DNA of 63,994 nt, filler included, from Reclinomonas americana ATCC 50394 (GCA_048213135.1; 15 parts of 15 records of this genome joined end to end with filler, not necessarily neighbours in it); one strand, 5' to 3'. Positions 1 to 61,975 are shown, counted from the first letter of the whole stretch. Notes: generated by a model not told the origin, from the letters alone. A program made the numbers and translations.

Positions 1-10
1 GCCAAGGCGG

Positions 11-222: not shown

Positions 223-223
223 C

Positions 224-562: not shown

Positions 563-564
563 TC

Positions 565-2714: not shown

Positions 2715-2752
2715 TTTCTTCCTCATCACCGGCTCATTCAACGGAGGCCATC

Positions 2753-4060: not shown

Positions 4061-4094
4061 GGGGGCTCAGCCTCTTATCGGCAGCGGGCAGGCG

Positions 4095-4484: not shown

Positions 4485-4555
4485 GTCGAATCCTCCCATG
4501 GCCTCGCAAATCTGCGAGATGGAGGCGCCGATTTCAATAGTCTGGGGATCAGTAA

Positions 4556-6457: not shown

Positions 6458-6460
6458 TCC

Positions 6461-6835: not shown

Positions 6836-6838
6836 GCC

Positions 6839-7351: not shown

Positions 7352-7418
7352 CGCCGCCGCCTTCGTCAACGACCTGATCGGCTGCGCCTATGAGGCTGTC
7401 GGGCTGCATTGCTGGGAG
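7341..7418 (+). CDS. NlpC/P60-type tail protein, 5' fragment (truncated by contig end)
   Basis: MASDAAAFVNDLIGCAYEAVGLHCWE matches the 'IG.PY......CW' start of tail NlpC/P60 proteins. Confidence 0.7.
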
Positions 7419-7518
7419 NNNNNNNNNNNNNNNNNNNNNNNNNNNNNNNNNNNNNNNNNNNNTTAATTAATTAANNNNNNNNNNNNNNNNNNNNNNNNNN
7501 NNNNNNNNNNNNNNNNNN
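7419..7518. other. Artificial contig linker (N44-TTAATTAATTAA-N44); 14 such linkers split the window into 15 contigs
   Basis: Identical 100-nt N/stop-in-six-frames spacer also at 9120, 19541, 25118, 27049, 28878, 31688, 37468, 40185, 44929, 47804, 58509, 61322 and 62527. Confidence 0.99.
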
Positions 7519-7519
7519 T

Positions 7520-8860: not shown

Positions 8861-9119
8861 TGGCCTACGGTCTTCAGGTCTTCGACGCCTTTGGCAACCT
8901 CAAGCTCGATCTCACCGACCGGATCGCCCGCTATCTCGGCATGGTGTTCATCGATCTCGGCGTCTCAGGTACCGTCGTCAACGACGGCTTTCTAACTGGC
9001 ACGCCGTTCTGCACGGCTCACATGGTCAGCGCCGGCGGATCGAGCTGGCCCGGTAACAATCTGCGACCGCCGGACATCAGCTTTTCGGGCAACGTCATGT
9101 CCTACGGGCCGGCGAATGC
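8860..9119 (+). CDS. Tail tip accessory protein (truncated)
   Basis: MAYGLQVFDAFGNLKLDLTDR is typical of small genes following gpJ; TAATG overlap. Confidence 0.75.
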
Positions 9120-9253
9120 NNNNNNNNNNNNNNNNNNNNNNNNNNNNNNNNNNNNNNNNNNNNTTAATTAATTAANNNNNNNNNNNNNNNNNNNNNNNNN
9201 NNNNNNNNNNNNNNNNNNNCCGCCCCCGGGCGGCTTTTCGCGTGGAAACATCC

Positions 9254-11395: not shown

Positions 11396-11778
11396 GCGAC
11401 ATCGCCCGCGCCCTCCAGAGCCTCGGCGCTACGAACTGGACGCTCGACGGCGACGACATCGCCGGCCTGACCTGGCTGAGCGGCGAGGCGCAGTTCACCG
11501 ACGAGCAGATCTTGACGGCGGCTGCGTCGCTCCGGCCGCTGCTGCCGCCGATCACGCGGCGCCAGTTGCGACTGACCCTGCTGGCGCATGGCCTGCTCGG
11601 TCAGATCGCGCCGTCGATCGCCGCGCTGCCGGAACCTGCCCGCTCGGTCGCGCTGATCGAATGGGAGGATGCGCGCGAGTACCAGCGGGAGCATCCGCTG
11701 CTCGGCCAGCTTGGCGCGGCACTCGGTCTGACGGACGAACAGATCGACGCAATGTGGGCCGAAGCAGCAGCGCGCTAA
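11392..11778 (+). CDS. Tail fibre assembly chaperone-like protein
   Basis: ITRRQLRLTL...IEWEDA...HPLL...LGLTDEQIDAMW motif; ATGA overlap with the fibre gene. Confidence 0.75.
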   Translation: MSDIARALQSLGATNWTLDGDDIAGLTWLSGEAQFTDEQILTAAASLRPLLPPITRRQLRLTLLAHGLLGQIAPSIAALPEPARSVALIEWEDAREYQREHPLLGQLGAALGLTDEQIDAMWAEAAAR

Positions 11779-11802
11779 GCCGGCCGCCACGGGAATTAAG
11801 CC

Positions 11803-11827
11803 GCCGCCTTCGGGCGGCCTTTTCTTT
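11803..11827 (+). terminator. Rho-independent terminator
   Basis: GCCGCC-TTCG-GGCGGC stem followed by CTTTTTCTTT. Confidence 0.85.
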
Positions 11828-11842
11828 GCCCGGAGTAATCTG

Positions 11843-12670
11843 ATGATCCCCAACGAGGTGCAAGCCGCGCTGGTCGCGCTCGGCTATTCGGTGTCGGTCG
11901 ACGGTGTGATCGGCCCGAAGACCAAGGAGTCGATCAAGGATTTCCAGCACCGGCATGGCTTGAAGGCCGATGGTGTCGCCGGGCCGAAGACCACCGCCAA
12001 GCTTCACGAACTGCTGGCGCGTGAGACGGTCGAAGAGCGGCCCGGCATCCTCACGACGGCTGTCATCAAGGCTGTGGCGCCGAAGGCGCGGGGCGATATC
12101 ATCGAGGCCCTGGTCGAGGCCGTGGCGCCATTTGCCGCTGTCGGCATCGTCACCAAGCTGCGGTCGGCACATTTCCTTGCCCAGATCTCGACCGAGACCG
12201 GAGGCCTCACCGCGCTGGAGGAGAGCCTCAACTACTCGGTCGACGGCCTGCTCAAGACCTTCTCGCGCAAGCGCATCACGAAGGCGCAGGCCGAAGCGCT
12301 CGGTCGCAAGCCGGGCCGCGCCGCAGATCAGGAAGCTATCGCGAACGTCCTCTATGGCGGAGCATGGGGCGAGGCGAACCTCGGCAACACCGAACCGGAC
12401 GACGGCTGGCGCTATCGCGGCGGTGGGCTGATGCAGACCACCGGGCGGGCGAATTATCGCCGTGCTGGGTTTGAGGCCAACCCTGAGGCGCTGCGCACGC
12501 CTGGCGGCGGTCTTAAGGCGGCGCTGACCTTCTGGTCGAACAACGATCTCAACCGCATTGCCGACCGCGACGACATTGTTGCGCTGCGCAAGGCGGTCAA
12601 TGGCGGCGCTAACGGGCTCGATGAAGCCAAGGGCTATCTGTCCAAGGCCAAGAAGGCACTGGGCATCTGA
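11843..12670 (+). CDS. Endolysin: N-terminal peptidoglycan-binding domain + GH19 catalytic domain
   Basis: VDGVIGPKT...FQ...GLKADGVAGPKT; AHFLAQISTETGG, DGWRYRGGGLMQTTGRANY. Confidence 0.93.
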   Translation: MIPNEVQAALVALGYSVSVDGVIGPKTKESIKDFQHRHGLKADGVAGPKTTAKLHELLARETVEERPGILTTAVIKAVAPKARGDIIEALVEAVAPFAAVGIVTKLRSAHFLAQISTETGGLTALEESLNYSVDGLLKTFSRKRITKAQAEALGRKPGRAADQEAIANVLYGGAWGEANLGNTEPDDGWRYRGGGLMQTTGRANYRRAGFEANPEALRTPGGGLKAALTFWSNNDLNRIADRDDIVALRKAVNGGANGLDEAKGYLSKAKKALGI

Positions 12671-12714
12671 TCCCGCCGGCGGCCGGGCCTGCCGCCATCC
12701 TCCGGAGCATCTCG

Positions 12715-13047
12715 ATGAACGATCCGATCAAGCTGCTCGTCAGCAGCCTTGCCGCGCCCGTGCGCATTCTGCTGATGGCGGCCTTCCTGCTGCTCGCCAA
12801 GATGGGCTGGTTCACCTGGCTGACGCCCGAGAACTATCATGAGCGCGTCAACCTGCTGATGGATTTCCTCGTTGTCGCCGTGCCGGCCGGCTATGCGGTA
12901 TGGGCCGGCTTCAAGGCTTGGCGCGAAAAGCAGCCTGTCGCCGTGATCTCCGCCGCTGCAGCGCTGCCGGAGGTGGCAAAGATCGTCACCACGCCGGAGA
13001 TCGCGGCGAAGGTCGACGATCCCGCCACTGTCGTCACGCGCGGCTGA
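12715..13047 (+). CDS. Holin-like membrane protein
   Basis: Two predicted TM helices immediately after the endolysin. Confidence 0.65.
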   Translation: MNDPIKLLVSSLAAPVRILLMAAFLLLAKMGWFTWLTPENYHERVNLLMDFLVVAVPAGYAVWAGFKAWREKQPVAVISAAAALPEVAKIVTTPEIAAKVDDPATVVTRG

Positions 13048-13060
13048 GCGGGAGGGCGCC

Positions 13061-13543
13061 ATGCCCCATCGCGACAAGCCGCTGCCGGTCCGGCTCTATC
13101 TCGGTATCCACGACCATTTCCCGGCCCGACGCTCGGAATGGGTCTTGGCCGGCATCCTGATCGCCTGGGGCTGGATTCTGTTGAAGCCGGCCGCTGCCTT
13201 CGCGGGGAACCCTGCATGGTCCCAGATGGCGGCGATGATGAGCGAGGACGCATGGGGCAGGCTCGCCATTGCGATCGGCGCCTTTCGGTTCATCGCACTG
13301 ATCATCAACGGCACCTTTGCTCGCACCTGGTACGGACGGTGGTCGCCGCATGTCAGGGCGCTGGCGAGCTTCCTCACCTGCTTTCTCTGGTTCCAGATCT
13401 CGTTCGGTCTGTGGAATTCCGATGCGGCGACGACTGGCCTTGCTGTGTATCCCGGCCTGCTTGTGCTCGACGCGATGAACATCGTCGCCGCGACACGTGA
13501 CGCGGGGAGCATGGACAAGGCCGTCTCTGATGACCGACCCTAG
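13061..13543 (+). CDS. Multi-pass membrane protein of the lysis cassette
   Basis: About four hydrophobic helices; GGGAGG SD. Confidence 0.75.
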   Translation: MPHRDKPLPVRLYLGIHDHFPARRSEWVLAGILIAWGWILLKPAAAFAGNPAWSQMAAMMSEDAWGRLAIAIGAFRFIALIINGTFARTWYGRWSPHVRALASFLTCFLWFQISFGLWNSDAATTGLAVYPGLLVLDAMNIVAATRDAGSMDKAVSDDRP

Positions 13544-13883
13544 CGCGCTCACTACCGAGAACATCATCGGCACGCTGATCGCTGGCATCGGCATCGGCAT
13601 CTATGCGCTGCGGGAGTACTTCAAAACCCGCAAAGCGCCGGCGACCGCGCAGAACGGCGACAGGGTCATTCCCGGCGTGACGATCGCCGACATGCAGCCG
13701 ATCCGCGAGCTCGCTGCGGAGCAGGCGCGCACGACCGCGGCCAATGAGCGGATCGCGGTCGCGGCCGAAGGGCTCTTCAAGCTGTTGCGCGACCAGGCGC
13801 AGGACGATGCGATCGAGGAGGAGGTCGAGCGCCGAATACGGCAGCGCGACGTCGATCGTCGCCGGCGCACGACGAGATCCTGA
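13530..13883 (+). CDS. Membrane-anchored coiled-coil protein (lysis region)
   Basis: N-terminal TM segment IIGTLIAGIGIGIYAL, then a helical tail; overlaps the upstream gene. Confidence 0.7.
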   Translation: MTDPSALTTENIIGTLIAGIGIGIYALREYFKTRKAPATAQNGDRVIPGVTIADMQPIRELAAEQARTTAANERIAVAAEGLFKLLRDQAQDDAIEEEVERRIRQRDVDRRRRTTRS

Positions 13884-13969
13884 ATTGCCGGGCTGACCGG
13901 CGATCGCCTGGCCGGCGTAACCGGCCGTCGAGTGGCTCCTGCCTCTCGGTTTGACGCCTCCCTGTTGAA

Positions 13970-14203
13970 CTAGCCGCCGGTCCCTTCATCGGGGCTGGCG
14001 GCTCTTTTGGCGTTTTCCTCATCGGTCAGCATGCGGGCTATCCGCTTGGCGAGGGCTTCGGCCTCTTCCTCTGACATGCGCTTTCGGATTGCGCGCTCGC
14101 TGTCATTGCCCTTGTCGAAGAAGACCGTGCAGATAGACGTGTCGTTCGCGTCCCTGATATTGAAGCTCTCGCCGTATCGGCCGATTTTGAGGGGCGTCTT
14201 CAT
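13970..14203 (-). CDS. Hypothetical protein
   Basis: 77-aa ORF with SD; ESFNIRDAND...EEAEALAKRIARML. Confidence 0.7.
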   Translation of the reverse strand: MKTPLKIGRYGESFNIRDANDTSICTVFFDKGNDSERAIRKRMSEEEAEALAKRIARMLTDEENAKRAASPDEGTGG

Positions 14204-14277
14204 CCCTTCAGTCTAAGGCCTCTCCTTGCCGGAGGCGAGGGTGGTCGTCTCTCCCCTGGCTGCGGAGCGGGCGCGGC

Positions 14278-15063
14278 TCATTGCGATTGCCCCTTGATCT
14301 CTCGGAGCTTTGTCGGCTCGACGATCTGTCCGTTGATTGCACGGTGTGACAGGCAGCCGTTCTCCGCGCGCATCGTGCCGTCAATGAACAGCTCTGAGCC
14401 TTCCTCCATGAAGCGGCCGATCTGCTCGGGGTTCGCCGCCAGGACCGAGACGATGAGGCCGGCCGTCTCCGACGCTCCTACGTTCGCTTGCCAGCCTACT
14501 GCCGCGGCCACCTCGGCTATGCATTGCACAACCTTTGGCGCCTCCACCGCCTGCGCGAGCTTGGCTTCGGCTGAGAGGGCGCGCTGACGCCAAAGATCCA
14601 AGCTGGCCTCCGCTGCTAGGTCTTCCTCCGCGTGTTGACCGATCTCCCGCTCCTTCGCCTCGAAGGCTGGGCGCATAAGGGCCAGGATCGCGCGGGCCAT
14701 CGGGTAGACGCGCAGATCGACCCAAGAGCCGCCATAGTACGCCGCGACACTGGTCTTCGTGTCGTCCTCGTTGATGGTCTGGAACCCCGTTCGATCGACG
14801 AAGTAAGCGATCAGGGTCCGCGCGATCGCCTCCTCGCTCGGCAGCCCAACCTGTGCACAGGTTGAGACCATATTCCCGGCGTCGGGAGAATGGTCCCCAC
14901 CCGAGCAATATGCAGGATCTGCATGGTGCTCTCCCGGCATCCCTGCGCCTGCGTCGGTCATTGGGAGCATAGGATCTTGCTCGGCCCGTCCGCAGTCGCA
15001 CTGATCGGGCGGGCAGGCGACGAAGCAGAGTCTTCCTGATGGCGGCCGTTTAGCGAGCTTCAT
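14278..15063 (-). CDS. Mosaic phage early (Ea/ead-like) protein
   Basis: Part of the coupled minus-strand operon; contains DHSPDAGNMV peptide and coiled coil. Confidence 0.65.
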   Translation of the reverse strand: MKLAKRPPSGRLCFVACPPDQCDCGRAEQDPMLPMTDAGAGMPGEHHADPAYCSGGDHSPDAGNMVSTCAQVGLPSEEAIARTLIAYFVDRTGFQTINEDDTKTSVAAYYGGSWVDLRVYPMARAILALMRPAFEAKEREIGQHAEEDLAAEASLDLWRQRALSAEAKLAQAVEAPKVVQCIAEVAAAVGWQANVGASETAGLIVSVLAANPEQIGRFMEEGSELFIDGTMRAENGCLSHRAINGQIVEPTKLREIKGQSQ

Positions 15064-15430
15064 CCTTCCCCTCCCGCGAGGCGCTCGGAGGCTCGGGGAG
15101 AGGGCGCCAGTGGGTGGGCTTGGCCTCGCCGGTCACATCAGCGATCAACTGCTCGGCATAGGTCCAGTAGCCATCGCTCCCGATTTCGGCGGCGTCATCC
15201 GCGTCATAGGATTGCCAGAGCATCGCGACAGGCCACGCCTCCTCAGGCCCGGTCCCGAGAAAAATCTCGCCATCCTTCGGCGCGCTCGCGATATCGCGCC
15301 ACCCGTCCGCCCCCTTCTGCTTGGCGGATTCGTAGGCGAGGCGTGCAGCCTCGAAACCTGCTGCCCACGCGTCAGCCTGTTCTGAGCCGTACCAGCACGG
15401 GGCATCGTTCGCGCCCTTCTCATCGATCAT
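15050..15430 (-). CDS. DUF551-like phage protein
   Basis: GWRDIASAPKDG...PTHWRPLPEPP signature. Confidence 0.85.
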   Translation of the reverse strand: MIDEKGANDAPCWYGSEQADAWAAGFEAARLAYESAKQKGADGWRDIASAPKDGEIFLGTGPEEAWPVAMLWQSYDADDAAEIGSDGYWTYAEQLIADVTGEAKPTHWRPLPEPPSASREGKDEAR

Positions 15431-15812
15431 GCTGCGTCTCCAGTGCTCTGAGCAGGCCAGCGAGCGCTGCCCGGCAGATCTGCGGCCCGTTCGGCTCGTC
15501 CGGTCGCCAGCCGCGCTGCATCATTTCGTCGATGCACCCGGCCAGAAAATCGGCTGCCGAGATGTCGGGTAGCTCTGACCGCTTCGCCTCGATCAGAGCG
15601 AGGACGGCGTCGAGGGAGCCGGTGACGTTGAAGGGCTCTTCGTATTCGGGGTTGCTCGCGGTCAGTGAGCCATCGGGACGGCGCCAGCGCAGCCCTTGGG
15701 GCAAACCGGTTTCGATCGACCAGCCAAGGGCGAGCGCAATGTCCTTGTTCAACTCATTGTCGTAGCCCGTCCCGCTCTCCACGCGCTCTATCAGCTCTTC
15801 CAGGTCAGCCAT
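15420..15812 (-). CDS. Phage early hypothetical protein (ABA-sandwich-like)
   Basis: ELIERVE..TG.DNELNKDIALALGW...TGSLDAVLALIE. Confidence 0.7.
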   Translation of the reverse strand: MADLEELIERVESGTGYDNELNKDIALALGWSIETGLPQGLRWRRPDGSLTASNPEYEEPFNVTGSLDAVLALIEAKRSELPDISAADFLAGCIDEMMQRGWRPDEPNGPQICRAALAGLLRALETQHDR

Positions 15813-16173
15813 GGGTGGTGTCCTTCTGGAGAGCGGCGCGAGCGGAGCGGAGCAGCCTGAGACGCCTCGTCGCTTCGCGCATGCTGATGTGCGATCCGAG
15901 CAGGTAGTCGTAGCTTTCGAGCAGGCCCGCCACCGAGTAGCGGATGCTTTCGGGGTTGCCGTATCGCATGACCCACTCCGGGCCGCCCTCCTCGAACGAC
16001 TGCGGATTGATGATCGAGGCGAAAGCTCCGTCGCCCAGAGATACGGAGGCCGTCAGGCCATCGGCCGGGTGGCCCCCTGGCGTGTTGTCTATCACGCGGA
16101 AAGCGCCGGCTCTGGCGTACGCTCCGTTCGGGAACAGCGTGGAAACCCGGAAGGCTGTCATCTTCTCACGCAT
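15805..16173 (-). CDS. Hypothetical phage protein
   Basis: Overlapping start/stop coupling in the operon. Confidence 0.65.
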   Translation of the reverse strand: MREKMTAFRVSTLFPNGAYARAGAFRVIDNTPGGHPADGLTASVSLGDGAFASIINPQSFEEGGPEWVMRYGNPESIRYSVAGLLESYDYLLGSHISMREATRRLRLLRSARAALQKDTTHG

Positions 16174-16438
16174 CGGAGCCTCCGGGGCGGGTGGTGGGGC
16201 GGGCCAGCCGAAAAGGGTCCGGCCGCGGCGTGTACGGGCCGAACTCCGCGATCATGTCGGCTTCCCATTTGGCTCGGCGCCATTCGGCATCGAGCTCGGC
16301 TTCCTGCCAGTGTGGCCAGCAAAATCGGGGGCCGTTCTTGTGATGGCTGAATCCGGTCACGCCGCAAGTCCAGCATGTAGCTCCGACATACTTGCCGCCC
16401 GGCCAGTCGTGTTTCGGTTCAGCGGTCCATTTCGCCAT
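16166..16438 (-). CDS. Small Cys/His hypothetical protein
   Basis: MAKWTAE...CWTCG...CWPH; AGGGG SD. Confidence 0.6.
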   Translation of the reverse strand: MAKWTAEPKHDWPGGKYVGATCWTCGVTGFSHHKNGPRFCWPHWQEAELDAEWRRAKWEADMIAEFGPYTPRPDPFRLARPTTRPGGSDA

Positions 16439-16442
16439 CCCT

Positions 16443-16628
16443 CTACCCCTCCTCGCGTCTGGAAGGGTCGGAGAGGGGAGGGACATAGATCAGCGTCCAG
16501 CGCCATCCGCACCTCGGGCAGCAAAGCGACCCCCGGAAGGATTTGCAGCGATCCCGACGAAATGTGCCGCAACCTTGGCTGCACCGAAACTGGGCGCCCG
16601 GTTCGTATTCTGGCCAGCGCTCGCCCAT
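16443..16628 (-). CDS. Small zinc-finger protein
   Basis: CSQGC...CPRCG. Confidence 0.6.
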   Translation of the reverse strand: MGERWPEYEPGAQFRCSQGCGTFRRDRCKSFRGSLCCPRCGWRWTLIYVPPLSDPSRREEG

Positions 16629-16630
16629 CG

Positions 16631-17081
16631 TCACCGCTCCCCCTTCGCATCGGGGGCGGGGCCACGGCGCGGGCGCAGGTCGTCCGGGGCTCCGTTCTCC
16701 CGGTTGATATAGAATCCGTCCGTGTAGCCGCTGCCATCGTACCGCACGGGCCATTCGTCGGAGACGGTCACATTGAGGCCGTCGACGCCTCGGTCTTTCG
16801 AGATACCGACGACCCACAGCGGCACGCGAGCCCACTCGCCATAGCGAGACAGGAAGCTCTCTGACGCCTCGACCGGGTCGCCGATGCGTGGGTGCCAGTC
16901 GTCCACCCCCGCCGCAGGTGCTGGTGCGGCCGGGGAGGCGGCGAGGGCTGCGCGATAGCCGTGCATGAATGCTTCATAGACGTAGGTCGGTGGAACGCTC
17001 TCGCCCCAAAAGTCTCTTCCATTCTGTCCAAGCCGCCTCCACCCCGCCCCCATGCGCCTGCGTGTCGGTGTTCGTGGTCAT
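16631..17081 (-). pseudogene. Phage early protein with apparent 1-nt frameshift at 17004-17007
   Basis: ATG 17081 (ATGA overlap) gives MTTNTDTQAHGGGVEAAWTEWKRLLG, which continues sensibly as ESVPPTYVYEAFMHGYRAALAASP only if one G of GGGG is removed. Confidence 0.55.
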
Positions 17082-17356
17082 GGGCGGGTGTCCTTCCGGT
17101 CAAATTCGGCGCGGGTCTGGCCGGCCGTCAGCGCGCACCTCCGAGCCTGCTCGTGCGCGAGATCGGAGCCGGCTTCGCTGATAAACCAGGGGGCGATGAT
17201 CACGCCGCCTTCGCGGCCCTGCTCGATCTGGCCCGGTACGCCTTCAATCGACTTGAAGACGTAGGTGAGGATGGACCTCATCTGCCGAGGCGCGGCGACG
17301 ACAGCGGCCCACAGGAGCGCCTTGGCAATTCGGTCGCGGATGGTCAGTTCAGCCAT
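17078..17356 (-). CDS. Hypothetical phage protein
   Basis: MAELTIRDRIAKALLW...; GGAGAGGG SD; coupled to neighbours. Confidence 0.65.
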   Translation of the reverse strand: MAELTIRDRIAKALLWAAVVAAPRQMRSILTYVFKSIEGVPGQIEQGREGGVIIAPWFISEAGSDLAHEQARRCALTAGQTRAEFDRKDTRP

Positions 17357-17747
17357 CGCCCCTCTCCTTCGCGGTGGAGAGCGCGGCGTCGATGACAGCC
17401 AACTCACGCTCAGCGCTGGCCCAACCCTCAAGCCAGCCCTTGGCGGCCCTCAGCGCCTCCCGCAGCCTGTCCCTCTCTGCCTCTGCGGCGGTGGCGCGGC
17501 GTTGCTCTTTGAAGGTCGAGACTTTCCAGCGTTCGCGGCTGGCTTTGGTGTTCAGGTGGCTCCGGTGCACTCGCTCCAGTTCGGCGGCCTGCTGGGCGAT
17601 GAGGGCGGCGGCGCGTTGATCGAGAAGCCCGTCCACCCCGCTGTACTGGTAGTAGTTGCCGTGCATGCCGACATGGGCACGTTGGCGAGCCCTCAGCTCC
17701 GCCACCACCTTCTCTGCTGAGAGGTCAGACATCGGGGCGTCAGTCAT
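17349..17747 (-). CDS. Ead/Ea22-like coiled-coil phage protein
   Basis: MTDAPMSDLS...AAALIAQQAAELER...AEAERDRLREAL. Confidence 0.7.
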   Translation of the reverse strand: MTDAPMSDLSAEKVVAELRARQRAHVGMHGNYYQYSGVDGLLDQRAAALIAQQAAELERVHRSHLNTKASRERWKVSTFKEQRRATAAEAERDRLREALRAAKGWLEGWASAERELAVIDAALSTAKERGDG

Positions 17748-17937
17748 CGATGTTGCTCCTCTCGAACCAGTCGCGATCGAGCCTGCGACGCTCGTCGCGG
17801 TCCTCACGGAGATGATCGGGATCAGGCTCGTCGTCGCGGGAAAGCTCCCACGGGCACTCGCCACCGCCCTCGTCGAGCATTTCGCAGGAACGCGGGCTAT
17901 AGGCGCCGCAGATCGGGCACAGGTTCGTCTCGCTCAC
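17740..17937 (-). CDS. Small Cys-rich hypothetical protein
   Basis: CPICG...C...CPW; GGAGAG SD. Confidence 0.65.
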   Translation of the reverse strand: MSETNLCPICGAYSPRSCEMLDEGGGECPWELSRDDEPDPDHLREDRDERRRLDRDWFERSNIDD

Positions 17938-17962
17938 TTGCGCTCTCCTTGAGGGGTGGGGG

Positions 17963-18589
17963 TCATGCGGCTGCCCTCCGATGTGCGGACCTGGCCATGC
18001 TGATCAGGATGTCGCGGAAGGGCTCCGGCGTGGCGTTTCGGATGCGGGTTTTGTCCTTCCCGCCCACCATCGCCATCATTCCGATGCGGCGAGCCTTGGC
18101 GTAACCGTGCTTGGCGAGAGCAACTGGATGAATGCGCTGCTCGCCCGCGCCCCAGCGGAGGGACGGCAGTTCGACGCGGCTTGCATAGAGCCAGGTCGCC
18201 TTCCGCGAGAGATGGCCGTAGTGGCCCTGCTCGACATGAGCGGTCCAGCCCTCCTGGAAGTCTGCGGCGACCCAGCCGCCGGCCTTCGGAGGCTCTGCGA
18301 GGTCGAACGCGGCCCAGGCCTTTGAGTGCGCCGGATGTTCCAGGACGCCGCCCCAGCGGCGAACAGCGGCAAGAGCTGCCTCAAAGCAGCCAGCATCATC
18401 GCCAAGCTGATACTGATGCGGTTTGTTCGGCGCACCGTGCCAATAACGACCCCACCGCTGGCAGGGCGGATGCGCGACGACAGGCCACGGCCCGGCATAG
18501 AGACGGGCGTCTCGCGCCTCATCCCATGGGTCGACATCAGGGAGCCCGTAATAGGCGCCATCAGTCTCGACGAAGAGAGCGGCGATCAT
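17963..18589 (-). CDS. DNA cytosine-methyltransferase-like phage protein
   Basis: MIAALFVE...VVAHPPCQRW (PC catalytic-type motif)...GGVLEHP...VEQGHYGH...KATWLY...TPEPFRDILI; own GGAG SD and ATG at 18589. Confidence 0.65.
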   Translation of the reverse strand: MIAALFVETDGAYYGLPDVDPWDEARDARLYAGPWPVVAHPPCQRWGRYWHGAPNKPHQYQLGDDAGCFEAALAAVRRWGGVLEHPAHSKAWAAFDLAEPPKAGGWVAADFQEGWTAHVEQGHYGHLSRKATWLYASRVELPSLRWGAGEQRIHPVALAKHGYAKARRIGMMAMVGGKDKTRIRNATPEPFRDILISMARSAHRRAAA

Positions 18590-48285: not shown

Positions 48286-51200
48286 ATGGGTGCCGCACAG
48301 AATGGAGCCACTGGCAGTGGAAAGAGGTTTGTTTTTGCGGTAGCTCAGTTGAAGTTGTCAAATTTTGAATGTGTGCGCAGTGCTTCTCCTCCTCCACAAC
48401 AGAGGAAGAAGGCGTGCGATATGGCATGGGGAGGCGATGTGAAGGCACTGCGCGAGTTGGTGGCGCGTGAGGGCGCACAGACACTGCTGAAGAGAGAAGA
48501 GATGCATCGAACAGGCTTCTCGGCATTTTACTATGCCGCTCAGGGAAGCCATCTCTCTGTGTTGGAGTATTTGTGGGAGGAGAGTGGCGTTGGGCCACAA
48601 CTCGCACAACTTGTCAACGACTATGGCTACACGCCGCTGATGATTGCTGCTCAAAATGGTCATCTGCAAGTGGTAAAGTGGTTGCTGGCCGATGAGCGAC
48701 GATGTCCACCGGAGATGGTGCGGGCGGTCAGCAATAACCGTGACTACAATCCACAGTGCACTGCACTGCATTGTGCTGCCAAGAAAGGCCACGAAGCCGT
48801 TGTGCGACTCATCGCCACTCGCTTCCCCGACCTCATTCCCATGGTCAACAAGTTTGGCACGACGGCGGCTCAGTTGGCACGCCAAGCGGGCAAGCAACAA
48901 GTGGCCGAGTTGCTCGAGCGCCTCGCTGCGCAGCCCGCACCACCATCACCGCCACAACCGCAGGAACAACAGTTGCAACCTCCTCCCCCAGGTGCGTCGA
49001 TAGATAGGGGGAATGAGCTCTGGAGGGGGAAGAGAGACGAGGAGTTGTCTGCAGAGACAACGGAAGGGAGGACGAGGAGGCACAAGCAAAGTCACAAAGG
49101 AAGACGAAATAGAGATCAGTGCATTCAGTGAGATGCATTCGTTTTCACTCTTTCTCTCTCTCTCGCTCTCCCTCTCGCTCTCTCTCTCTCCGTACTTCAC
49201 GCTGTTCATCTCCTCACCGATCTACGTTGACATTCGCAGCCGACGCTGGGCGGGAGGTGAGACTCAATTGCTTCTCTGTGGTGTTCTGTCTCCTTCTCCA
49301 TCTCTGACCTCTCGTTGCCGTATGCAGTCTGTGGATGGAGCTGCCGTCGACCGACTCCAGCGACAGCCAGAGCTGGAGCAGTGGAATGAAGCCGCAGGCA
49401 GCAGCAACGGCGTAGGGTTTGTATGTTGCTAGTGCGCATTCTTCATAACTTATCACTACTGTGTGCTGAATTGTGGATGGGTGCAGTTCTTCTCCTCCTC
49501 CACAACAGAGGAAGAAGGCGTGGGTGATGGGGAGGGAGGGCGATGTGAACGCACTGCACGAGTTGGTGGCGCGTGAGGGTGCGCACACACTGCTGAAGAG
49601 CGAGGAGATGTACCGCGATGGCGCATCGGCATTTTACTTTGCCGCCTGCAAAGGCCATCTCTCTTCGTTGGAGTACTTGTGGGAGGAGAGTGGTGTCGGG
49701 CCACAGCTCGCGCAAAGGGTCACCGACTCTGGCTGGACGCCACTGATTGGGGCTGCCTCGAATGGGCGTCTGCAAGTGGTGGATTGGTTGCTTGCCGACG
49801 AGCGGCGATGTCCGCCGGAGATGGTGCGGGCGGTCGCCAGTGACCGGGACTCCTATCCACAGTCCACTGCATTGCATTATGCTGCATGGAAGGGCCACGA
49901 AGCCATTGTGCGACTCCTCGCCACTCGCTTCCCCGACCTCATTCCCATGGTCAACAAGTTTGGCAAGGCGGCCTCGCAATGGGCACGTGATTATGGCAAG
50001 CAGCAGGTGGCCGAGTTGCTCGACCGCCTCTCTAGGCAGTCAGTACCACCACTATCACTCCCTCAGCTACCGGAACAGCAGCCTTTCCCTGCTTCCTCAC
50101 CTCCAGGTGCGTCGCCTTGCATGCTACACTGGCTATCATTCGATTCACAACGTGTCCATCAGCTGCAGTAACCGACGCAACGCAGGAGGTGAGAATGACT
50201 CCATCTATTGCGCGCTTTATTCCTTTTTCAGAGGTAGTCGATCTGACATGTAACGATGCCACCAACTAGATTCATGCCATTGATCGAGCTAACTCCGGAG
50301 ACTTGCGCCTTTTGGGAGTTGCGCAGGCGTACGCACTCGGCGTTTCTTTCATTCCCGCTCATTCTGCTGCCATGCAGTTGGAGCGTCTAAAGAAGGCCGA
50401 CCACGAGGCGGCCCTCTTGCTGTCCAAGATTGATCCGAGGATATTTGGCATTGAGAAGCGCGCGTCTGCGGCGCCGTTGGAGACACCTCTGGAAGAGTTA
50501 CGGAGGAATGCGCAGCAAGCGCAGGCTGCAGTCGATGCTGTTCGACTTCAACTCGAACGAGAACGGCAGATCCAAGAACTTGAGCGACAACTCGAGCAGC
50601 TGCGCCGAGAGCACGAAGGCACTGCGGTGCAGCTGCAACAGCGCGTTGGCGAGCTCGAGTGCGCCAATGCTGTGCTTGAACGGACGACTCGCGCTACGGA
50701 GGAGCGTGCAGCGCAATTGGAACAAGCCAGGGCAGTGGCAGTCGACCGAGCAGCAGCAGCGGAGCGATTCAATGCCGAGCTTCGGCACACTCTTGATGAT
50801 GAGCGACAAAAGAACACTCAGCTGCAACAAAACATCGCCGAAAGGCAGCGACAAACTGCCGACCTCATCGCTGAGCGCGACGATTGGAAGCGCAAAGCAG
50901 AGGAGATGGAACGCCAGCTTCGTGCTCTCTTTGAAATGGACTTTCTCAGGTGATGCTCACTCTCTTTCGATCCCATCAATCGTGCGACGATGTTCCTGAA
51001 TCTCCATCGATTGCACAGTGACCGCCGTCCAATCTTGATGCTCACCGAGGTCGTGCATGAGATCATTCCACTGGCACTCGGCTCCCTCCTCCAACAACTG
51101 GTCCATGATTTCTTCCCTGGCGAATTCGACATTGAGCAACTCTGCCTCCCATCCCCGCCACCAAGGTGTTGAAGAAGACACTGCCTTGAATGTGTTCCCT

Positions 51201-53556
51201 GCGCTCACTATGCCTCACAGATACTGCCGAATGACTCTGGACAAGCGCGGCAACATTCGCATGCGCTCCGTAGAGCTCTTCCTATCCAACTGCGAGGCAA
51301 TTCGCGAGTTCAAGAGGAGTGGAATGACGACGGGCATGGACGTGTCACTGCTGAGCACACTGCTGTTGTTCATTTCATTTGTTCCTGTCGCTGCTTGCCG
51401 TGATGAAAATCTGCTGGAATGCCGCGTTCGCCTCGACCCAGTCACGAACAAGGACCGACTCGCAGTGCATTTGCTTGCTGACCCCGCCAAGGTAATTTTC
51501 TTCTTTTGAGTTGTCTCCCTTGATGGGTGATCTCATTTGTACTCTGTTTTGCAGATTCGAGCCGTGGAGAACTTGCGAGACGTGCGTCACCGCGTGTCCC
51601 ACCTGGCTCGCCTTTCCGCACTCGAAGACGCAGAGTATGTGAGCGTCATGCGGCTGGTTCGCGACTCGCTCCACACGCTGTTTCCCGACGGACAGCACGA
51701 GAGTATCTGTCTTCTCTTTCAAGCATACGAGAGTTTCGAAGGCACTCACCGTCTGCCTTGACATCTCGTTCTTCGATCTCATCTCTCGGGCACAGACGTG
51801 AGCCGCATCAACGTGACGGCCGAATTGGTGACGGAGAGAGCAGCCAGATTCGCCATTCGAGCTCCCGTGGTGCCGTACGCTGACCTGTCGAATTTGAGGC
51901 AGCTTGCAGTCGGTATGGTTCCTCGTTCACTACTTGCAAGCCAGCTGTCCCTAATCGTATCCCCATGTTCGCGTGCGCAGGTCAAAATGCTGTATTCCAA
52001 GCCTCTCTCAGTGTTGGCGGTGCATTGCAGACCGTGGCGTACAAGCGATATTTGATCAGGCACCAAGCTCGTGAATCGGAATCGGCGGACTGGAGACATG
52101 TTCACCAGTGCTTCGAGAACGAACACTCACTTCTCATGCAGCTTGAGTTGCGTGTTGTGGCGATCGCGCTTATCCTGTTGAATCAATCCTTCATGCCTTC
52201 CAGTGCAGCCATCCGCACGTTTTGAAACTAGTGGCCGTGTGCACCGACGATCGTCGTGGTCTTGGTCTTGTTCTTGAATATGTCGGTCAAGAAGACGAAG
52301 AGGAAATAGCGGAGACGCTTCACGATCTGGCGAAGGATGAGCATGTTCCAACTCATCAGCTGCTCTGCCTGCTTGTGCAAGTGGCATCGGCGGTGGTGTA
52401 CATGCACTCTCGGCGATTGGTGCATCGCGATCTGAAGCCGCAGAGTTGCGTCAATTAGAGAGGATGAGGAGGTGGAGAAGGAGACGAGTGTGAGATGCAC
52501 AGTATGTTCTCTGTCGCGTCACCTGCTCTCTGCTCGTTAGGCAGCGTATAGTGGAGTGGACACGAAGAATAGGTGTTGGGCATGGTGTTCTTTGGCGACT
52601 CCGTGTGGTGCAGGTAGCCCGAGCGAGCACGTCGTTCTTGCCAGTTAAATGCATATGAACAATAGCCAGGAAATCAGCAAAAGCAGACAGTAGTCGACAA
52701 AGGGGTGCGGACATACACTCGCATACCTGCTCTCACACCGATAGATAGAGAGGGATAGAGAGGCAGCATCGTGAGAAAGTTGGAATGACTATCTGCGAGT
52801 TTCCTGCGTGGAAATGTGAGTCTTTCTCTCTCGGGATACACAGAAAACAGGTCATTCTCTTCTCAATTGCAACGAGAGAACGAGTGGAGAGATGATGCAA
52901 AGGGGGTACAAAGATCTATTTCATCAAGTCCTTGTGTCTTTCTAGATCGCTAACCTCTCTCTGTGCATCTCGGCAGACATTCTCATCAGCGAGGATCGAC
53001 TCGTTGCAAAGGTGTGCGACTTCGGAGAGGCCAAATTCAACGGCACTCTCGGAAAGATGCAGTCCAATCATGGTACGGCGGCGTACGCTGCACCCGAGGC
53101 CATGCTGGATCAAGAGGTGTGTGGACGACTGTCGCTCGCTTGATGTTCAGCGAGTGAGACGTCACTCAGCTTTGGTCGCCTCTCGCAGTACGATGAACGA
53201 GCGGATGTGTATGGTCTCGGCTCACTGCTGTGGTTGATCGCCACACGCCAGGAGCCATTCCGTGGATCGACACTGCAGGCGATTCTACAGTGCATGCGCG
53301 AAGGCATCCCACCTGGCAACTTGGACGACGACGCTGTGAAGGCCACCGTGTCGGAGGACATTCGCAGTCTCATTCGACAGTGCTGGGTTGCGTGCTGCTG
53401 AAGTGGCTTGCTGTCGAGAGGCAAGCTCTGAATGTTGGTGCGATGCAGATGCCTCAAGCGACGCGCGTGTCGGCGTCGTATGTGCACGATGTGCTGAAGA
53501 GTTTGTGCGAAACAGCGAAAACAGAAGGCGAAGCGAGTGCGGCTGGGCCGTCGTAG
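48286..53556 (+). CDS. Gene A: ANK cassette x2 - coiled coil - HEPN (DZIP3-like) - TKL-type protein kinase
   Basis: ANK exons 48381-48991 and 49487-50106; coiled coil 50378-50949; MDVSLLSTLL...VENLRDVRHRVSH...LEDAEY (51019-51702); kinase VAYK, HRDLKPQ|NIL, DFG, YAAPE, DVYGLG; all junctions in phase. Confidence 0.85.
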
Positions 53557-53896: not shown

Positions 53897-57779
<3,883 letters not shown>

Positions 57780-58884
57780 GAGAGAGTACTTTGACGATTG
57801 TAGTTGTTGAGGTGATGAATGATGATGTGCTGGCAGAAGAGGAGAGTGTGTCCTCACCTTGCCGTTTCGCTTCTATTGGCTTCTCTCTTGCGGTGGTGCG
57901 CGCGATGAGTTCGAACCGATATGAACCGATATGCACTTCGCGCTGCACTTCTTCAGTTGATGTGCCGAAGATCACACGTGCAGAATCGGTTGCTTCATCG
58001 CCGACACGCTAGTGATGGGTTGTACACCTCGCTGACAGATGACTTTACGATGTTTCTCTCTGTTTCTGCAATGTTTCTTTTCTTCCGGTGCTCAACCAAG
58101 ATGGTAATCATAACGCAGCTGTGTTGCTGCTTGGATAGTCGCTGTTGTTGCTGTCATCGTCGGTGTTGTTGGCGCTGCACTGTGAGGTTACTCGGCAACG
58201 TCGAAAGTGAAGATGACTGTTGGAGAAGAAATTATGTGTTTTGTATATTGTTAGTGTGCCAAGGTCATTGTCGGCAAGGGATTGTGGGCGTTCGTCTCAT
58301 TATTGGAATGTGGTGAATGAAGTGTTTTGTTAGTTTGCATGTCTTCGAATTCGACTTTCTTGTGCTGTTTCTGTGATGTCCCCGTTTTGCTGCTGCTCAA
58401 TCAACATGCGTTAGTCATAACGCAGTTGTGTGGCTGTGTAGATCAGTGAAGTTGTAGTTGGACGTGCCGGGGACATCGGACATCGAATTGGTTGCTGATT
58501 GATTACAGNNNNNNNNNNNNNNNNNNNNNNNNNNNNNNNNNNNNNNNNNNNNTTAATTAATTAANNNNNNNNNNNNNNNNNNNNNNNNNNNNNNNNNNNN
58601 NNNNNNNNCAAAAGAGTGTTGAGAGAGAGCATGCAAGGCGCGAAAGCAATCACTCTTCTCTCTTGCACACACACTCTGACTGTGTGTGCAATAGTGTGTC
58701 ACAGAGACACATTGCAGTCTATTCTCACTCTCTCTGCCTCTCTCTCTCTCTCTCTCTCTGTCTGTCTGTCTCTGTTGCTGTCCCGCTCATTTAACTCACT
58801 CTCCTCCTTCTCTCCTCTCTGCCTGCTTCCTCTGTTTCCTCCAACTCATTGTCTCACTCTGCGTCCCTCTGTCTCTCTCTTGCC

Positions 58885-59710
58885 TCTCTCACACATTTGC
58901 TCACAATCTCTGCCTCTTTTTTGACACTGTGACCGTCTCATGTATGACTCACTCTCCTCCCCTCTCAGTCCTTCTCTCCTCCCCTCTGTCTGTTCCTCCA
59001 CTCGTTCCCCTTCCTTATCTTTCTCGCCCTCACTCTTGCCCCCCCGTTTTCACTGTGTCGCTCTTCTGCGTCACCTGCCCTCTCACATTTTCTCACCTCT
59101 CCTCCCTTCTGCCTGCTTCCTTTGTTTCCTCCGACTCACTGTCTCACTCTGCGTCCCTCTCGCCCTCTCTATCTCTCTCTCGCCCTCTCTATCTCTCTCA
59201 CATTTGCTCACAATCTCTGCCTCTTTTCTGACTCTGTTTCCCACTGTGACCGTGTCATACTCTTCTCCACTCTCAGTCCTTCTCTCCTCCCCTCTGTCTG
59301 TTCCTCCACTCGGTCCCCTTCTTTATCTTTCTCGCCCTCACTCTTGCCCCCCTTTTTTCACTGTATCACTCTTCTGCGTCACCTGCCCTCTCACATCTTC
59401 TCACCTCTCCTCCCTTCTGCCTGCTTCCTTTGTTTCCTCTAACTCACTGTCTCACTCTGCGTCCCTCTCGCCCTCTCTATCTCTCTCTTGCTTCTCTCTC
59501 TCTCTCACACACACATTTGCTCACAATCTCTGCCTCTTTTCTGACTCTGTTTCCCACTGTGACCGTCTCATGTATAACTTACTGTCTTCCTCTCTCAGTC
59601 CTTATCTCCTTCCCTCTGTCTGTTCCTCCACTCATTCCCCTTCCTTATCTTTCTCGCCCTCACTCTTGCCCCCTTTTTTTCACTGTGTCACTCTTCTGCG
59701 TCACCTGTTC
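58885..59710. repeat. Intronic pyrimidine-rich tandem repeat, about 310-bp unit x about 3
   Basis: CACATTTGCTCACAATCTCTGCCTCTTTT recurs at about 58890, 59200 and 59512. Confidence 0.85.
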
Positions 59711-60595
59711 TCTCTCACTCCTCCCACTGCTTCCCTCCTCTCTCCCACTCTCAGTCTCACTCTTCGTCACTCTCGTCCTCATTCTCTCTCTCTCTCTCTC
59801 TGCCCCTAATTCCTCTCCCTTGCAGTTTCTCTTGCTGCCCATCGGTAATACTCTCTTCCTTGAATTCCACTCGCAGTCATTCTCCTCTCTCTCTCTCTCT
59901 CTCTCTCAAGGTCTCACTCTGCCTCCTCTCCCTATCTCTCTCTCGCCTCCTTTTCTCACCTTTGCTCTTGTTGCCCTCTCAATATATCTGTTCATCTTTC
60001 GCTTCTCTCTGCCCTTCTGCCTTCTCTCCTCGCGACCCCCTGCCTCATGTACCCCACATCCTTCTCCGCAGCCACCTTCAACTTTGCCCACTTCCTGTTC
60101 CTCCTTCACTCTTCTCCGCATTGCCTTTCGTCTCTCTGTGCAGCCTTCCATCTTCTGCCTCACTCACTCCACATCCTTCTCCGCATCCGCCTTTTCTTTC
60201 ACCCTTCGCCCTTGTCCTGCTCCGCCTTCAGTCTTCTGCACATCTTCTTTCGTCTCTCTGTGCATCCTCCTGTCTTCTGCTTCGCCCACTCCTCACCCTT
60301 CTCCGCAGCCACCTTCAACTTTGCCCTCTTCCTGTTCCTGCGTCACTCCTCTCCACATCGTCTTACGTCTCTCTAAGCATCCTTCCATCTTCTGCCTCGC
60401 TCACTCCACACCCTTTGTCCCGTATTGCCTGCTCTTTCACTTTCACCTCTCTCTGTCTCTCTGTCTCTCTCTCTCTCTCCCTGCACTCATCCCCTCTTGT
60501 GTTCATCTTGCCCTCGCCCTCCCTTGTCTCCTCCCGTCTCACCCCCTTCTCTTTCCCTTCTCACCCCCTCCCCCTCCCTCTTCCCCCTCTCACAG

Positions 60596-60738
60596 ACGGC
60601 CAACTCAGCCTCCACGGCGCCGAGCAAGCCACGCGCTTGCGCCAGTGGTTCGCCGGCGAGATTGTCGGCGAACGCGACACGGTGGTGCCCGTGCCACCGA
60701 CGGTCATTTACACCAGCGATTTGAAGCGCGCGTCGGAT
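60596..60738 (+). CDS. Internal exon of a histidine-phosphatase (phosphoglycerate mutase) family gene
   Basis: DGQLSLHGAEQATRL...VIYTSDLKRAS matches D..L...G..QA...SDL.RA; flanked by CAG and GT. Confidence 0.8.
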
Positions 60739-61975
60739 GTTGAGTCGGCGGGGGAGGAGTGAGAGGGAAGAGAAGGGCATGGAGAGAGAGAGAGAGAAAG
60801 AGGGATGGGAGAGAGTGACAGAGGACGCGATAAAGAGAGAGTGCAAATGAGACAGTGAGCGGCAAAGAGTGACAAAGGGGGGAGCGAGAGGGGGTAACAC
60901 TGAGACAGGAGAGAGGGCGAGTGAGCGAAGGACGAGAGAGCGTGGTGCGACAAAGCAATCGCAAATGAAGTCGGGAGAAAGAACGACCGCAGAGGAGCTG
61001 CCGAAGCTTAGAGTGGGTGGAAAGTGAGGAGAATACGTCGGCATTACAGCTCTTCTGCCTCCCTTTGTCTGTCTCCCGTGCCGTTTACTTCACTCGCTGT
61101 GCTCCGTGAATTCTCGGTCTTCATATCTCTTTCTCTCTGTCGCTTTCTCTTTCTCTCTTCTCTTCTCTTGTCTTCCACCACCCTCATTGCCCACGTCTAT
61201 TTGACTCGTGGCTCAATGCTCCTCCGTCTTCATCTCTCTCTCTCTCACTCTCACACACACACACTCTCTCTCTCTCTGTGTCTGTCTCTAACTCTCTCTC
61301 TCTTCTCTCTCTTCTTCTCTCNNNNNNNNNNNNNNNNNNNNNNNNNNNNNNNNNNNNNNNNNNNNTTAATTAATTAANNNNNNNNNNNNNNNNNNNNNNN
61401 NNNNNNNNNNNNNNNNNNNNNTCGAGGTCCACTCGACGTGGGAAGCAAAAATAACTTGTCAGGCGACGTACGCCTGGGCGGACAACGCAGTTTCAGCGTA
61501 TTCCACAATTGCAAATCCCGTTATCAGCAGGTACGCTGTACGCGCAGCAAGCGCACTCAACGATGTTAGCAAGCGGGACGAATTCATTGCGCGTCAAGCT
61601 GAGAGGAAAAACAATAACCGGATTCGGAGGGAAAAACTGCTAACTTCACACCATGCTTCTCTCAGTCGGTGGTGAGCAAAGAGGGCTATCTCATAACACG
61701 CGCAAAAGAAGGCAGTGTAAGAAATTCAGCAAGCGCGACGAATTCCACACGCAAAAAAAGCACAATAGGAAAAATCGATATCGATCTCACAAAAATCTCA
61801 CGTCCCTTGATCAGTGATGCACGAAAGTTGTCTTCCAACACGCACAGACCCTTTATTCAACCTTTTCAGCAAGCGCAACGAATTCCATGCGCGAAATTAC
61901 AAGAGAAACCATCAACGTCGCACACATGTCCCAAGTCCCGTAACGCCTCTCGCTTTTCGCCACAAAGTCTCAACG

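Follow-up and report, generated by a model that had tools for sequence, protein, structure and literature searches.

HEPN domains fused with ankyrin repeats have already been published for proteins presumed to act in immunity (PMC3710099, Table 1; PMC8195603). In the same table of the HEPN survey, the KEN family is joined to S/T/Y kinases and ankyrin repeats, and the eukaryotic DZIP3/hRUL138-type HEPN domain is joined to ankyrin, TPR, CARD, NACHT, Death and LRR modules and has undergone lineage-specific expansion in Nematostella, oyster and Capsaspora; Table 1 gives the DZIP3 type no kinase partner (PMC3710099). The survey describes the residue following the arginine of the Rx4-6H motif as mostly N, D or H, and places the motif where helix 3 ends, ahead of the loop to helix 4 (PMC3710099).

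Here we describe a predicted gene of Reclinomonas americana ATCC 50394 that lies within a window of 63,994 nucleotides, the whole stretch of DNA analyzed. Its parts, in order, are two ankyrin cassettes, a coiled coil, a helical module and a protein kinase, with the ankyrin and kinase identities shown in silico. Like RNase L, the predicted protein carries on one chain N-terminal ankyrin repeats, the fold of a protein kinase and perhaps an Rx4H module of HEPN type, and it resembles both RNase L and Ire1 in having an element, here a predicted coiled coil, that could dimerize and so pair two nuclease modules.

Gene structure

Splicing by sequence resolves positions 48286-53556 of the plus strand, on which all features given below lie, into 16 exons separated by 15 introns, all of them GT-AG. 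The product is a single in-phase ORF of 3621 nt (1206 codons plus stop, with no internal stop) that begins with the ATG at 48286, remains open throughout and ends with the TAG at 53554-53556, giving a predicted protein of 1,206 residues. An ORF of this kind had been proposed from manual splicing in an earlier, sequence-only reading, and re-splicing reproduced it, stop-free. We judge the predicted 16-exon ORF to be beyond chance. Intron 13 (52445-52976) is 532 nt long, and the remaining 14 introns measure 50-248 nt. Short GT-AG introns, together with the lack of a close relative in the databases searched, make the protist origin proposed in the sequence-only reading plausible. The junctions joining exons 13-15 are strongly supported because matches to the Pfam kinase profile run consecutively across them (see below). 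Exon 7 has two possible starts, in-phase acceptors being readable at 50270 and also at 50378.

Ankyrin cassettes and coiled coil

Both ankyrin cassettes are identified by Ank/Ank_2 profile matches. Cassette 1 (exon 2, 48381-48991; residues 14-217) matches Pfam Ank_2 with an E-value of 3.4e-22 and 79.3 bits, and cassette 2 (exon 5, 49487-50106; residues 253-459) with an E-value of 1.6e-17, each above the cut-off; the two are ~73-76% identical to each other. They are linked in phase by exons 3 (49240-49256, 17 nt) and 4 (49328-49416, 89 nt), and cassette 2 is followed by a 20-nt in-phase mini-exon, exon 6 (50169-50188), which has a counterpart at 55628-55647 in the paralog described below. Exon 7 (50270-50949) encodes residues 467-692, where composition points to a coiled coil: A/R/L/E/Q make up 63% of the region, and past residue 539 its sole Pro/Gly residues are G583 and G593. 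Pfam returned only weak coiled-coil family matches for this region, among them CENP-F_leu_zip at an E-value of 1.8e-4, below its cut-off. This much agrees with the sequence-only reading, which had placed two ankyrin cassettes ahead of a coiled coil.

The helical module as a candidate HEPN domain

In the spliced translation, exons 8 (51019-51165, residues 693-741), 9 (51221-51491, residues 742-832) and 10 (51555-51702, residues 833-881) encode a predicted helical module of 189 residues (693-881), with the same exon boundaries and peptides as first reported. The Rx4H motif noted there likewise reads as stated, positions 51585-51602 coding for R843-H-R-V-S-H848. This is R-H-x3-H, with a polar residue after the arginine as in the HEPN motif, though among 20000 shuffled versions of the 189-residue region 54% contain a bare Rx4H and 8.7% an R-[NDH]-x3-H. 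The Rx4H alone is thus no more than expected by chance.

The predicted structural setting of the motif resembles that described for HEPN domains. AlphaFold2 models the exon-10 peptide, a fragment folded out of context, as an alpha-hairpin (pLDDT 87.3; helix 2-19, loop 20-24, helix 25-42), and R11-H16 of the peptide fall near the C-terminal end of the first helix, before the loop and the next helix. The model of exon 9 alone is uninformative (pLDDT 49). E808-C-R-V-R in the module fits the E-x3-[KR] pattern of the upstream acidic residue in HEPN helix 2, and E-A-I-R lies in a helix predicted by the low-confidence exon-9 model; either of them, or neither, may be the counterpart. Compared by eye and post hoc, the order of motifs resembles that of Ymh HEPN proteins: an E-A-x-[KR] helix, ~75 residues, R-[NH]-x3-H, 9-12 residues, and D-A-E opening the last helix. 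The module also contains D-V-S-L-L-S-T-L-L upstream of the Rx4H, and E-D-A-E-Y. These fit a putative HEPN_DZIP3 (PF18738) pattern, in which D-[IV]-[TS]-L-L..L-L lies upstream of the Rx4H and an aromatic residue after it; the likeness to DZIP3/hRUL138 noted earlier is of this kind.

Profile searches returned no similarity to HEPN families, either with exon pieces (Pfam, PADLOC and NCBIfam) or with the spliced module (an HMM of Ymh sequences). Scanned exon by exon, the peptides of exons 8, 9 and 10 matched no Pfam family at E ≤ 10, PF18738 included (a profile of 144 positions with a curated cut-off of 27 bits), and no PADLOC or NCBIfam family. The Pfam negative is weak because the exon peptides were scanned separately and not as a spliced domain; a weak PF18738 member divided among three exons could pass unnoticed below the filters of such a scan. 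PF18738 was not found in any of the 15 genomes searched. The local HMM, built from seven Ymh HEPN sequences, gave the spliced module −1.4 bits, which is no better than shuffled sequences (1160 of 2000 shuffles were reported, and 511 of those scored at least as high). An exhaustive phmmer search of exon 9 against 1.84 billion protein representatives found no true relative, its single match (E-value 1.7e-4) being rejected as a repeat-protein artefact. Against the PDB, phmmer with exons 9 and 10 found nothing above noise (E-values of at least 0.3). Foldseek of the exon-10 hairpin was uninformative, with no match at E ≤ 0.001 and nothing named HEPN among the matches listed.

Language-model neighbors in the Atlas point toward HEPN domains more broadly. 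For exon 10 (recognition score 2602), six of the eight named sets listed are HEPN families, with scores of 0.79-0.87; all Atlas scores lie below 0.9, a range that is rated as giving leads only, shuffled proteins reaching 0.8 a third of the time. Three of the sets are HEPN by cluster name, namely PF09670 (Csm6), PF09659 (Csm6 HEPN) and PF18739 (Apea HEPN); PF09509 (Ymh), PF13643 (DUF4145) and PF13910 (DUF4209) are classed as HEPN in the survey (PMC3710099). Only four of the ten best matches belong to the family or clan of the highest-scoring match, PF18738 is absent among the neighbors listed, and exon 9 gave no usable match.

The HEPN reading of the module is accordingly a lead and not a result. 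A looser assignment to the HEPN superfamily has some support from the R-H-x3-H motif, its modeled helix-loop-helix context and the Atlas neighbors. The narrower assignment made in the sequence-only reading, that the module belongs with DZIP3/hRUL138, gained no support from these searches: PF18738 matched none of the separately scanned exons, a weak negative, and is missing from the listed Atlas neighbors. The hydrophobic helix here is presumably longer than in that family, and it is transmembrane-like. The proposed succession of ankyrin cassettes, coiled coil, helical module and kinase in one gene is supported in silico.

The explanation that we prefer, plausible though tentative, is that a single gene encodes a cytoplasmic protein of 1206 residues in which two ankyrin cassettes, a coiled coil of ~225 residues, an orphan alpha-helical module of ~190 residues and a divergent kinase are combined, the module being a very divergent HEPN-type domain that acts as a composite RNase. 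The ankyrin cassettes would provide binding or sensing surfaces, and the coiled coil would join two chains and thereby pair two helical modules. The paired R843/H848 motifs would then form a composite, metal-independent RNase site, with the kinase next to the module as a possible regulator or co-effector. Most of this mechanism, comprising the HEPN fold, dimerization, RNase activity and a role in defense, is what we infer.

The kinase domain and a possible non-nucleolytic module

Exons 11-16 (51796-53556) encode a linker and a predicted protein kinase domain. The Pfam Pkinase profile matches exons 13, 14 and 15 with E-values of 2.7e-11, 2.4e-6 and 4.6e-4 at consecutive profile positions (55-127, 129-169 and 174-244), and the exon 13 match, at 43.8 bits, exceeds the 31.7-bit cut-off. 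The spliced translation contains V-A-Y-K with K942 (52043-52045), H-R-D at residues 1052-1054 (from 52423), D-F-G at 1073-1075 (from 53018) and A-P-E at 1097-1099, while a reduced Gly loop reads G921-Q-N-A-V-F; the sequence-only reading had listed the same four motifs and a reduced Gly loop. We regard the domain as a divergent Ser/Thr kinase by prediction, with its catalytic residues kept. The last exon (35 aa) matches no Pfam family; ~30 residues lie past the kinase, which reaches almost to the stop.

These features separate the protein from RNase L and Ire1. Pfam detects no KEN (Ribonuc_2-5A) domain past the kinase, and the kinase, which keeps K, H-R-D and D-F-G, shows no specific RNase L or Ire1 likeness in any PDB search of its exons. 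Unlike in RNase L, the order here is ankyrin, coiled coil, module and kinase, a long coiled coil is present, and any 2-5A-like ligand would be conjectural. The term ‘RNase L-like’, applied to the gene when it was first read, is apt only as an analogy between the parts.

Only somewhat less likely than the explanation we prefer is that the helical module is no RNase at all. A single gene would then encode a kinase for which the ankyrin repeats and coiled coil provide a scaffold. The Rx4H would have arisen by chance, and the module would be a non-catalytic or membrane-active helical bundle (an MLKL/HeLo-like executioner, or a brace) or would serve in kinase regulation or dimerization. Of all 19-residue windows in the protein, residues 783-801 in exon 9 form the most hydrophobic (Kyte-Doolittle mean 2.27), a transmembrane-like stretch that exceeds the length expected of a core helix in a soluble HEPN domain and counts against HEPN; a second, borderline window lies at residues 698-716 (1.63). 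A helical module directly N-terminal to a kinase fold, with a strongly hydrophobic helix, recalls MLKL and the RIPK proteins, and the best PDB sequence matches of the C-lobe exon are RIPK1 (E-value 2.9e-4) and MLKL (E-value 3.9e-3). A divergent N-lobe, whose exon has no PDB match at E ≤ 1, and the reduced Gly loop are in keeping with such a reading, as are the lack of HEPN similarity in profile and sequence searches and the chance-level Rx4H. So is the N-terminus, M-G-A-A-Q-N-G (exon 1, 48286-48326), which presumably matches the N-myristoylation consensus; Gly2 is not conserved, since the paralog starts M-S-A-A-Q-N-G.

The RIPK/MLKL likeness is nevertheless weak, because the other kinase exons find their best PDB matches in CDK6/NEK7 and RAD53/SnRK2. 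MLKL is a pseudokinase without catalytic residues, whereas K942, H-R-D and D-F-G are intact here, and the module is internal, behind the ankyrin cassettes and coiled coil. Nor is a non-nucleolytic fold better placed by similarity: exons 9 and 10 have no detectable relative among solved structures by phmmer, and MLKL, HeLo or another fold is likewise unlinked in the Pfam, PDB and Foldseek searches. The HEPN families among the exon-10 Atlas neighbors listed are not joined by any pore-forming one, and with a single membrane span the ankyrin repeats would lie on one side of the membrane and the kinase on the other.

A tandem paralog with a different back end

A second predicted gene adjoins the first on the same contig at 53897 to ~57780 (+), modeled as 12 in-phase exons that encode two ankyrin cassettes and a coiled coil followed by an RLK/IRAK-like kinase. 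All 12 modeled exons have the same phases as their equivalents, including mini-exons that correspond to exons 3 and 4. The first ~470 residues of the two proteins align closely, and identity is 54% over residues 1-643. Beyond this the paralog differs: its coiled coil runs directly into the kinase with no helical module, and the kinase, of another family, is only 31% identical over 93 aa to that of the first gene. The two are tandem paralogs with a predicted ANK-ANK-coiled-coil front in common and distinct back ends.

The paralog also bears on whether the model runs together what are in fact separate genes, such as one or two for small ankyrin proteins and another for the coiled coil, helical module and kinase, or a still finer division, with the in-phase joins a by-product of tandem duplication. 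Every junction was placed from sequence; exons 3, 4 and 6 are very short, the start of exon 7 is ambiguous, and internal Met codons occur where cassette 2 starts and also in exons 7 and 8. Between the paralogs, introns (similarity 0.66-0.75) are about as alike as exons (0.75-0.88), and exons therefore do not stand out by conservation. Against fusion, each of the 15 junctions is GT-AG and keeps the reading frame, the phases recur in the paralog, and the only large gap in the paralog alignment (191 nt) falls within intron 2, exon gaps being just 3, 3 and 22 nt. The would-be intergenic gaps are only 50-250 nt, and the kinase exons follow on from one another along the Pfam profile. We consider separate genes quite improbable.

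Very improbable, in our view, is a degenerate HEPN domain that has lost RNA cleavage and, attached to an active kinase, would bind RNA or nucleotides or play a regulatory part: inactive HEPN domains serving as binding domains are described (PMC3710099), family-level similarity escaped the exon-by-exon Pfam scan and the Ymh HMM, and no clear upstream acidic motif can be placed confidently in a helix, but R843, H848 and the polar residue after the arginine are intact.

If the module is an active HEPN RNase, as we prefer, the gene would be a second case, independent of the first and found outside animals, in which one chain couples ankyrin repeats with a kinase fold and a HEPN nuclease, here with the domains ordered differently. 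It would show that convergence can produce the RNase L/Ire1 design. If it is not HEPN, the gene remains an orphan-domain kinase from an unsampled lineage, of ordinary interest. The tandem pair, with a common front and different back ends, would offer a compact system for studying the re-use of a sensor and dimerizer with different effectors. A bolder proposal, which we think unlikely, is that this microbial eukaryote independently built a kinase-coupled HEPN RNase by setting ankyrin sensors and a coiled-coil dimerizer before a HEPN module so divergent that sequence searches detect no relative, that the same front drives the RLK/IRAK-like kinase of the adjoining paralog, and that the two belong to a swap-the-effector defense family convergent with RNase L/Ire1. 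The best PDB matches of the paralog kinase are BRI1 (E-value 9e-6) and CERK1 (E-value 2e-4).

Structure of the gene

Sequence reading combined with splicing by coordinates resolves the gene into 16 exons, all on the plus strand of the contig at 47904-58508 of the window, with a frame that stays open over 1206 codons. Exon 1 (48286-48326) precedes exon 2 (48381-48991), which matches Ank_2 (Pfam, E 3.4e-22); exons 3 (49240-49256) and 4 (49328-49416) lead to a second Ank_2 match in exon 5 (49487-50106, E 1.6e-17), and exon 6 (50169-50188) to the coiled coil of exon 7 (50270-50949). The helical module is encoded by exons 8 (51019-51165), 9 (51221-51491), and 10 (51555-51702), the last of which carries the Rx4H motif at 51585-51602. 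Beyond exon 11 (51796-51912), the kinase occupies exons 12 (51981-52153, the N-lobe), 13 (52204-52444), 14 (52977-53116), and 15 (53189-53386), and exon 16 (53449-53556) ends the model. The span, the three helical-domain exons, their peptides, and the motif position proposed in the sequence-only reading were all reproduced in this way.

The 15 introns are all GT-AG, and 14 of them measure 50-248 nt; the remaining one, intron 13 (52445-52976), is 532 nt long and has no Rfam match, nor did Rfam return any match across the whole window. Reading through the intron between exons 9 and 10 meets two stop codons. At the start of exon 7 there are two in-phase acceptors, 50270 and 50378; the latter has the better pyrimidine tract, and its use would delete 36 residues. 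Pfam matches to Pkinase fall at profile positions 55-127, 129-169, and 174-244 in exons 13, 14, and 15, respectively, and this continuation of one profile across the introns validates the junctions there.

A paralog in tandem, at 53897-57779 (+) on the same contig, supports the single-gene model best, because it keeps the exon plan and phases: from 53897 it presents an ANK cassette, a 17-nt mini-exon, a linker exon, a second ANK cassette, a 20-nt mini-exon, and the coiled coil, with phases equal to those of the gene in 12 of 12 modelled exons and GT-AG borders at all 11 introns between them. The two proteins share 54% identity over residues 1-643 and diverge beyond. Introns are about as alike between the two genes as exons are, so conservation does not mark exons here. 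Taken as a prediction from the DNA, 48286-53556 is very probably one gene.

The paralog joins an RLK/IRAK-like kinase back end to the front end common to both genes. Its kinase follows the coiled coil directly, has an N-lobe nearest in the PDB to plant receptor-like kinases (BRI1, 9e-6; CERK1, 2e-4), and shares only 31% identity with the kinase of the gene under study, over 93 residues.

Ankyrin, coiled-coil, and kinase regions

A homolog search with the ankyrin exon 2 returned 25 generic ankyrin proteins, none of them a close relative and none with a HEPN family. Similarly, a metagenome scan with the ANK cassette found 26 loci with generic ankyrin genes (27-70% identity over short stretches), and a tblastn search of those loci for the helical module yielded nothing alike (best E 4.5). 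Exon 7 is 63% A/R/L/E/Q, and past residue 539 it contains no Pro or Gly other than G583 and G593; coiled-coil families in Pfam matched it below threshold only.

In the spliced protein the kinase retains the catalytic motifs K942 (V-A-Y-K), H1052-R-D, D1073-F-G, and A1097-P-E, while the Gly loop keeps its first glycine alone. PDB sequence searches did not assign the kinase to any one family: they placed exon 13 nearest to CDK6 and NEK7 and exon 14 nearest to RAD53 and SnRK2; exon 12, the N-lobe, had no match at E <= 1, and a homolog search with exon 13 found no relative. A Death-fold domain ahead of the kinase was also considered and dropped, Pfam giving no match.

The helical module as a candidate HEPN domain

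The module (residues 693-881) was interpreted in the sequence-only reading as a DZIP3/hRUL138-like HEPN domain within an RNase L-like effector. The architecture stood up to splicing and Pfam, and the HEPN assignment is now a moderately supported lead that draws on the motif, a structure prediction for exon 10, and an embedding-based search, with profile searches negative. The motif has the form R-H-x3-H. According to PMC3710099, the residue following the R of the HEPN motif is mostly N, D, or H, and the motif is placed at the end of helix 3, ahead of the loop to helix 4. R-[NDH]-x3-H arises in 8.7% of shuffles, and bare Rx4H is present in 54% of shuffles of the helical-module region. For the exon-10 peptide alone, AF2 confidently predicts (pLDDT 87.3) a helix at residues 2-19, a loop at 20-24, and a helix at 25-42; the motif occupies residues 11-16.

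An ESM Atlas feature search queried with exon 10 points the same way, HEPN families making up six of the eight named neighbour sets listed, a signal that depends in part on the motif. These sets are Csm6 (PF09670), Ymh (PF09509), Csm6_HEPN (PF09659), DUF4145 (PF13643), DUF4209 (PF13910), and HEPN_Apea (PF18739); three are called HEPN by cluster name and the other three are so classed by PMC3710099. Scores were 0.79-0.87, which the tool rates as leads only, and among the best 10 matches only four fall in the same family or clan as the top one. PF18738 (DZIP3) is absent from the neighbour sets, and none of the 15 genomes searched for it, one bacterial and 14 used as controls, yielded a match. 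The module has a putative resemblance to the DZIP3 family consensus and is a candidate member of that family.

Pfam, PADLOC, and NCBIfam, searched with the peptides of exons 8, 9, and 10 one at a time, returned zero families at E <= 10. Exon 9 had no relative by phmmer among 1.84 billion representatives (one repeat-protein artefact aside), none in a word-indexed search against longer proteins, and none in a metagenome scan; its Atlas search gave no usable match, and its AF2 model, at pLDDT 49, was unusable. PDB sequence searches with exons 9 and 10 returned noise only, and Foldseek aligned the exon-10 hairpin to generic hairpins only. Moreover, the spliced module scored no better than its own shuffles against a local HMM built from seven bacterial Ymh HEPN domains.

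A serious rival reading takes the module for a helical bundle that acts on membranes or has a regulatory role. Over 19-residue windows, the hydrophobicity of the whole protein peaks at residues 783-801 (Kyte-Doolittle 2.27), a value in the transmembrane range, and a second, borderline window lies at residues 698-716. The module stands directly upstream of a kinase fold whose C-lobe (exon 15) has RIPK1 and MLKL as its nearest solved relatives in a PDB sequence search, a weak match. However, nothing links the module to membrane-active or regulatory bundle folds either. A true single-pass membrane protein was dropped, since that topology would part the ankyrin repeats from the kinase. We put a HEPN-superfamily fold for the module at about an even chance; that it acts as an RNase is a more tentative proposal and somewhat doubtful.

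Comparison with RNase L and Ire1

HEPN RNases are known to require paired domains. The parts list of the gene overlaps with that of RNase L in its ankyrin repeats, kinase fold, and possible HEPN-type nuclease. Unlike RNase L, the gene places its candidate nuclease ahead of the kinase, includes a long coiled coil, and has a kinase that looks catalytically competent from its motifs. No KEN domain was found behind the kinase, so the gene fails on the defining feature of RNase L membership; the KEN family's fusion to kinase and ankyrin is given in Table 1 of PMC3710099. With KEN absent, the order different, and the parts overlapping, an RNase L/Ire1-like mode of working is conceivable without family membership: by analogy, the protein could act through dimerisation-dependent pairing of two Rx4H sites.

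Kinase is not among the fusion partners given for the DZIP3 family in PMC3710099 Table 1, and a limited open-access literature search, including passages of PMC3710099 and PMC8195603, found no eukaryotic fusion of a non-KEN HEPN with a protein kinase. The interest of the gene is moderate, and would be high were the HEPN fold and activity true.

Other features of the window

Fourteen spacers, each a 12-base all-frame stop linker flanked by N44 on either side (47804-47903 and 58509-58608 are two of them), divide the window; it thus consists of separate contigs, and neighbourhood across spacers is not to be assumed. The contigs within 1-19540, with roughly 61-65% GC and long ORFs free of interruptions, have a bacterial or prophage-like appearance and probably represent a bacterial associate or a contaminant in the assembly. 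A 633-aa ORF there (4556-6454) shares 37% identity over 75 residues with a Bosea MAG, and another (11732-12667) contains PG_binding_1 (E 1.7e-16). On a further eukaryote-like contig, the ORF at 38521-39288 (-) matches Polysacc_deac_1 (E 3.4e-22), a polysaccharide deacetylase domain. A tandem repeat at 38059-38534 (+) translates in two frames into a recurring 9-residue peptide unit. Finally, 58609-60760 is a long CT-rich low-complexity stretch whose open frames, rich in Ser, Leu, and Pro, reach 497 aa; it is probably repeat DNA rather than genes.
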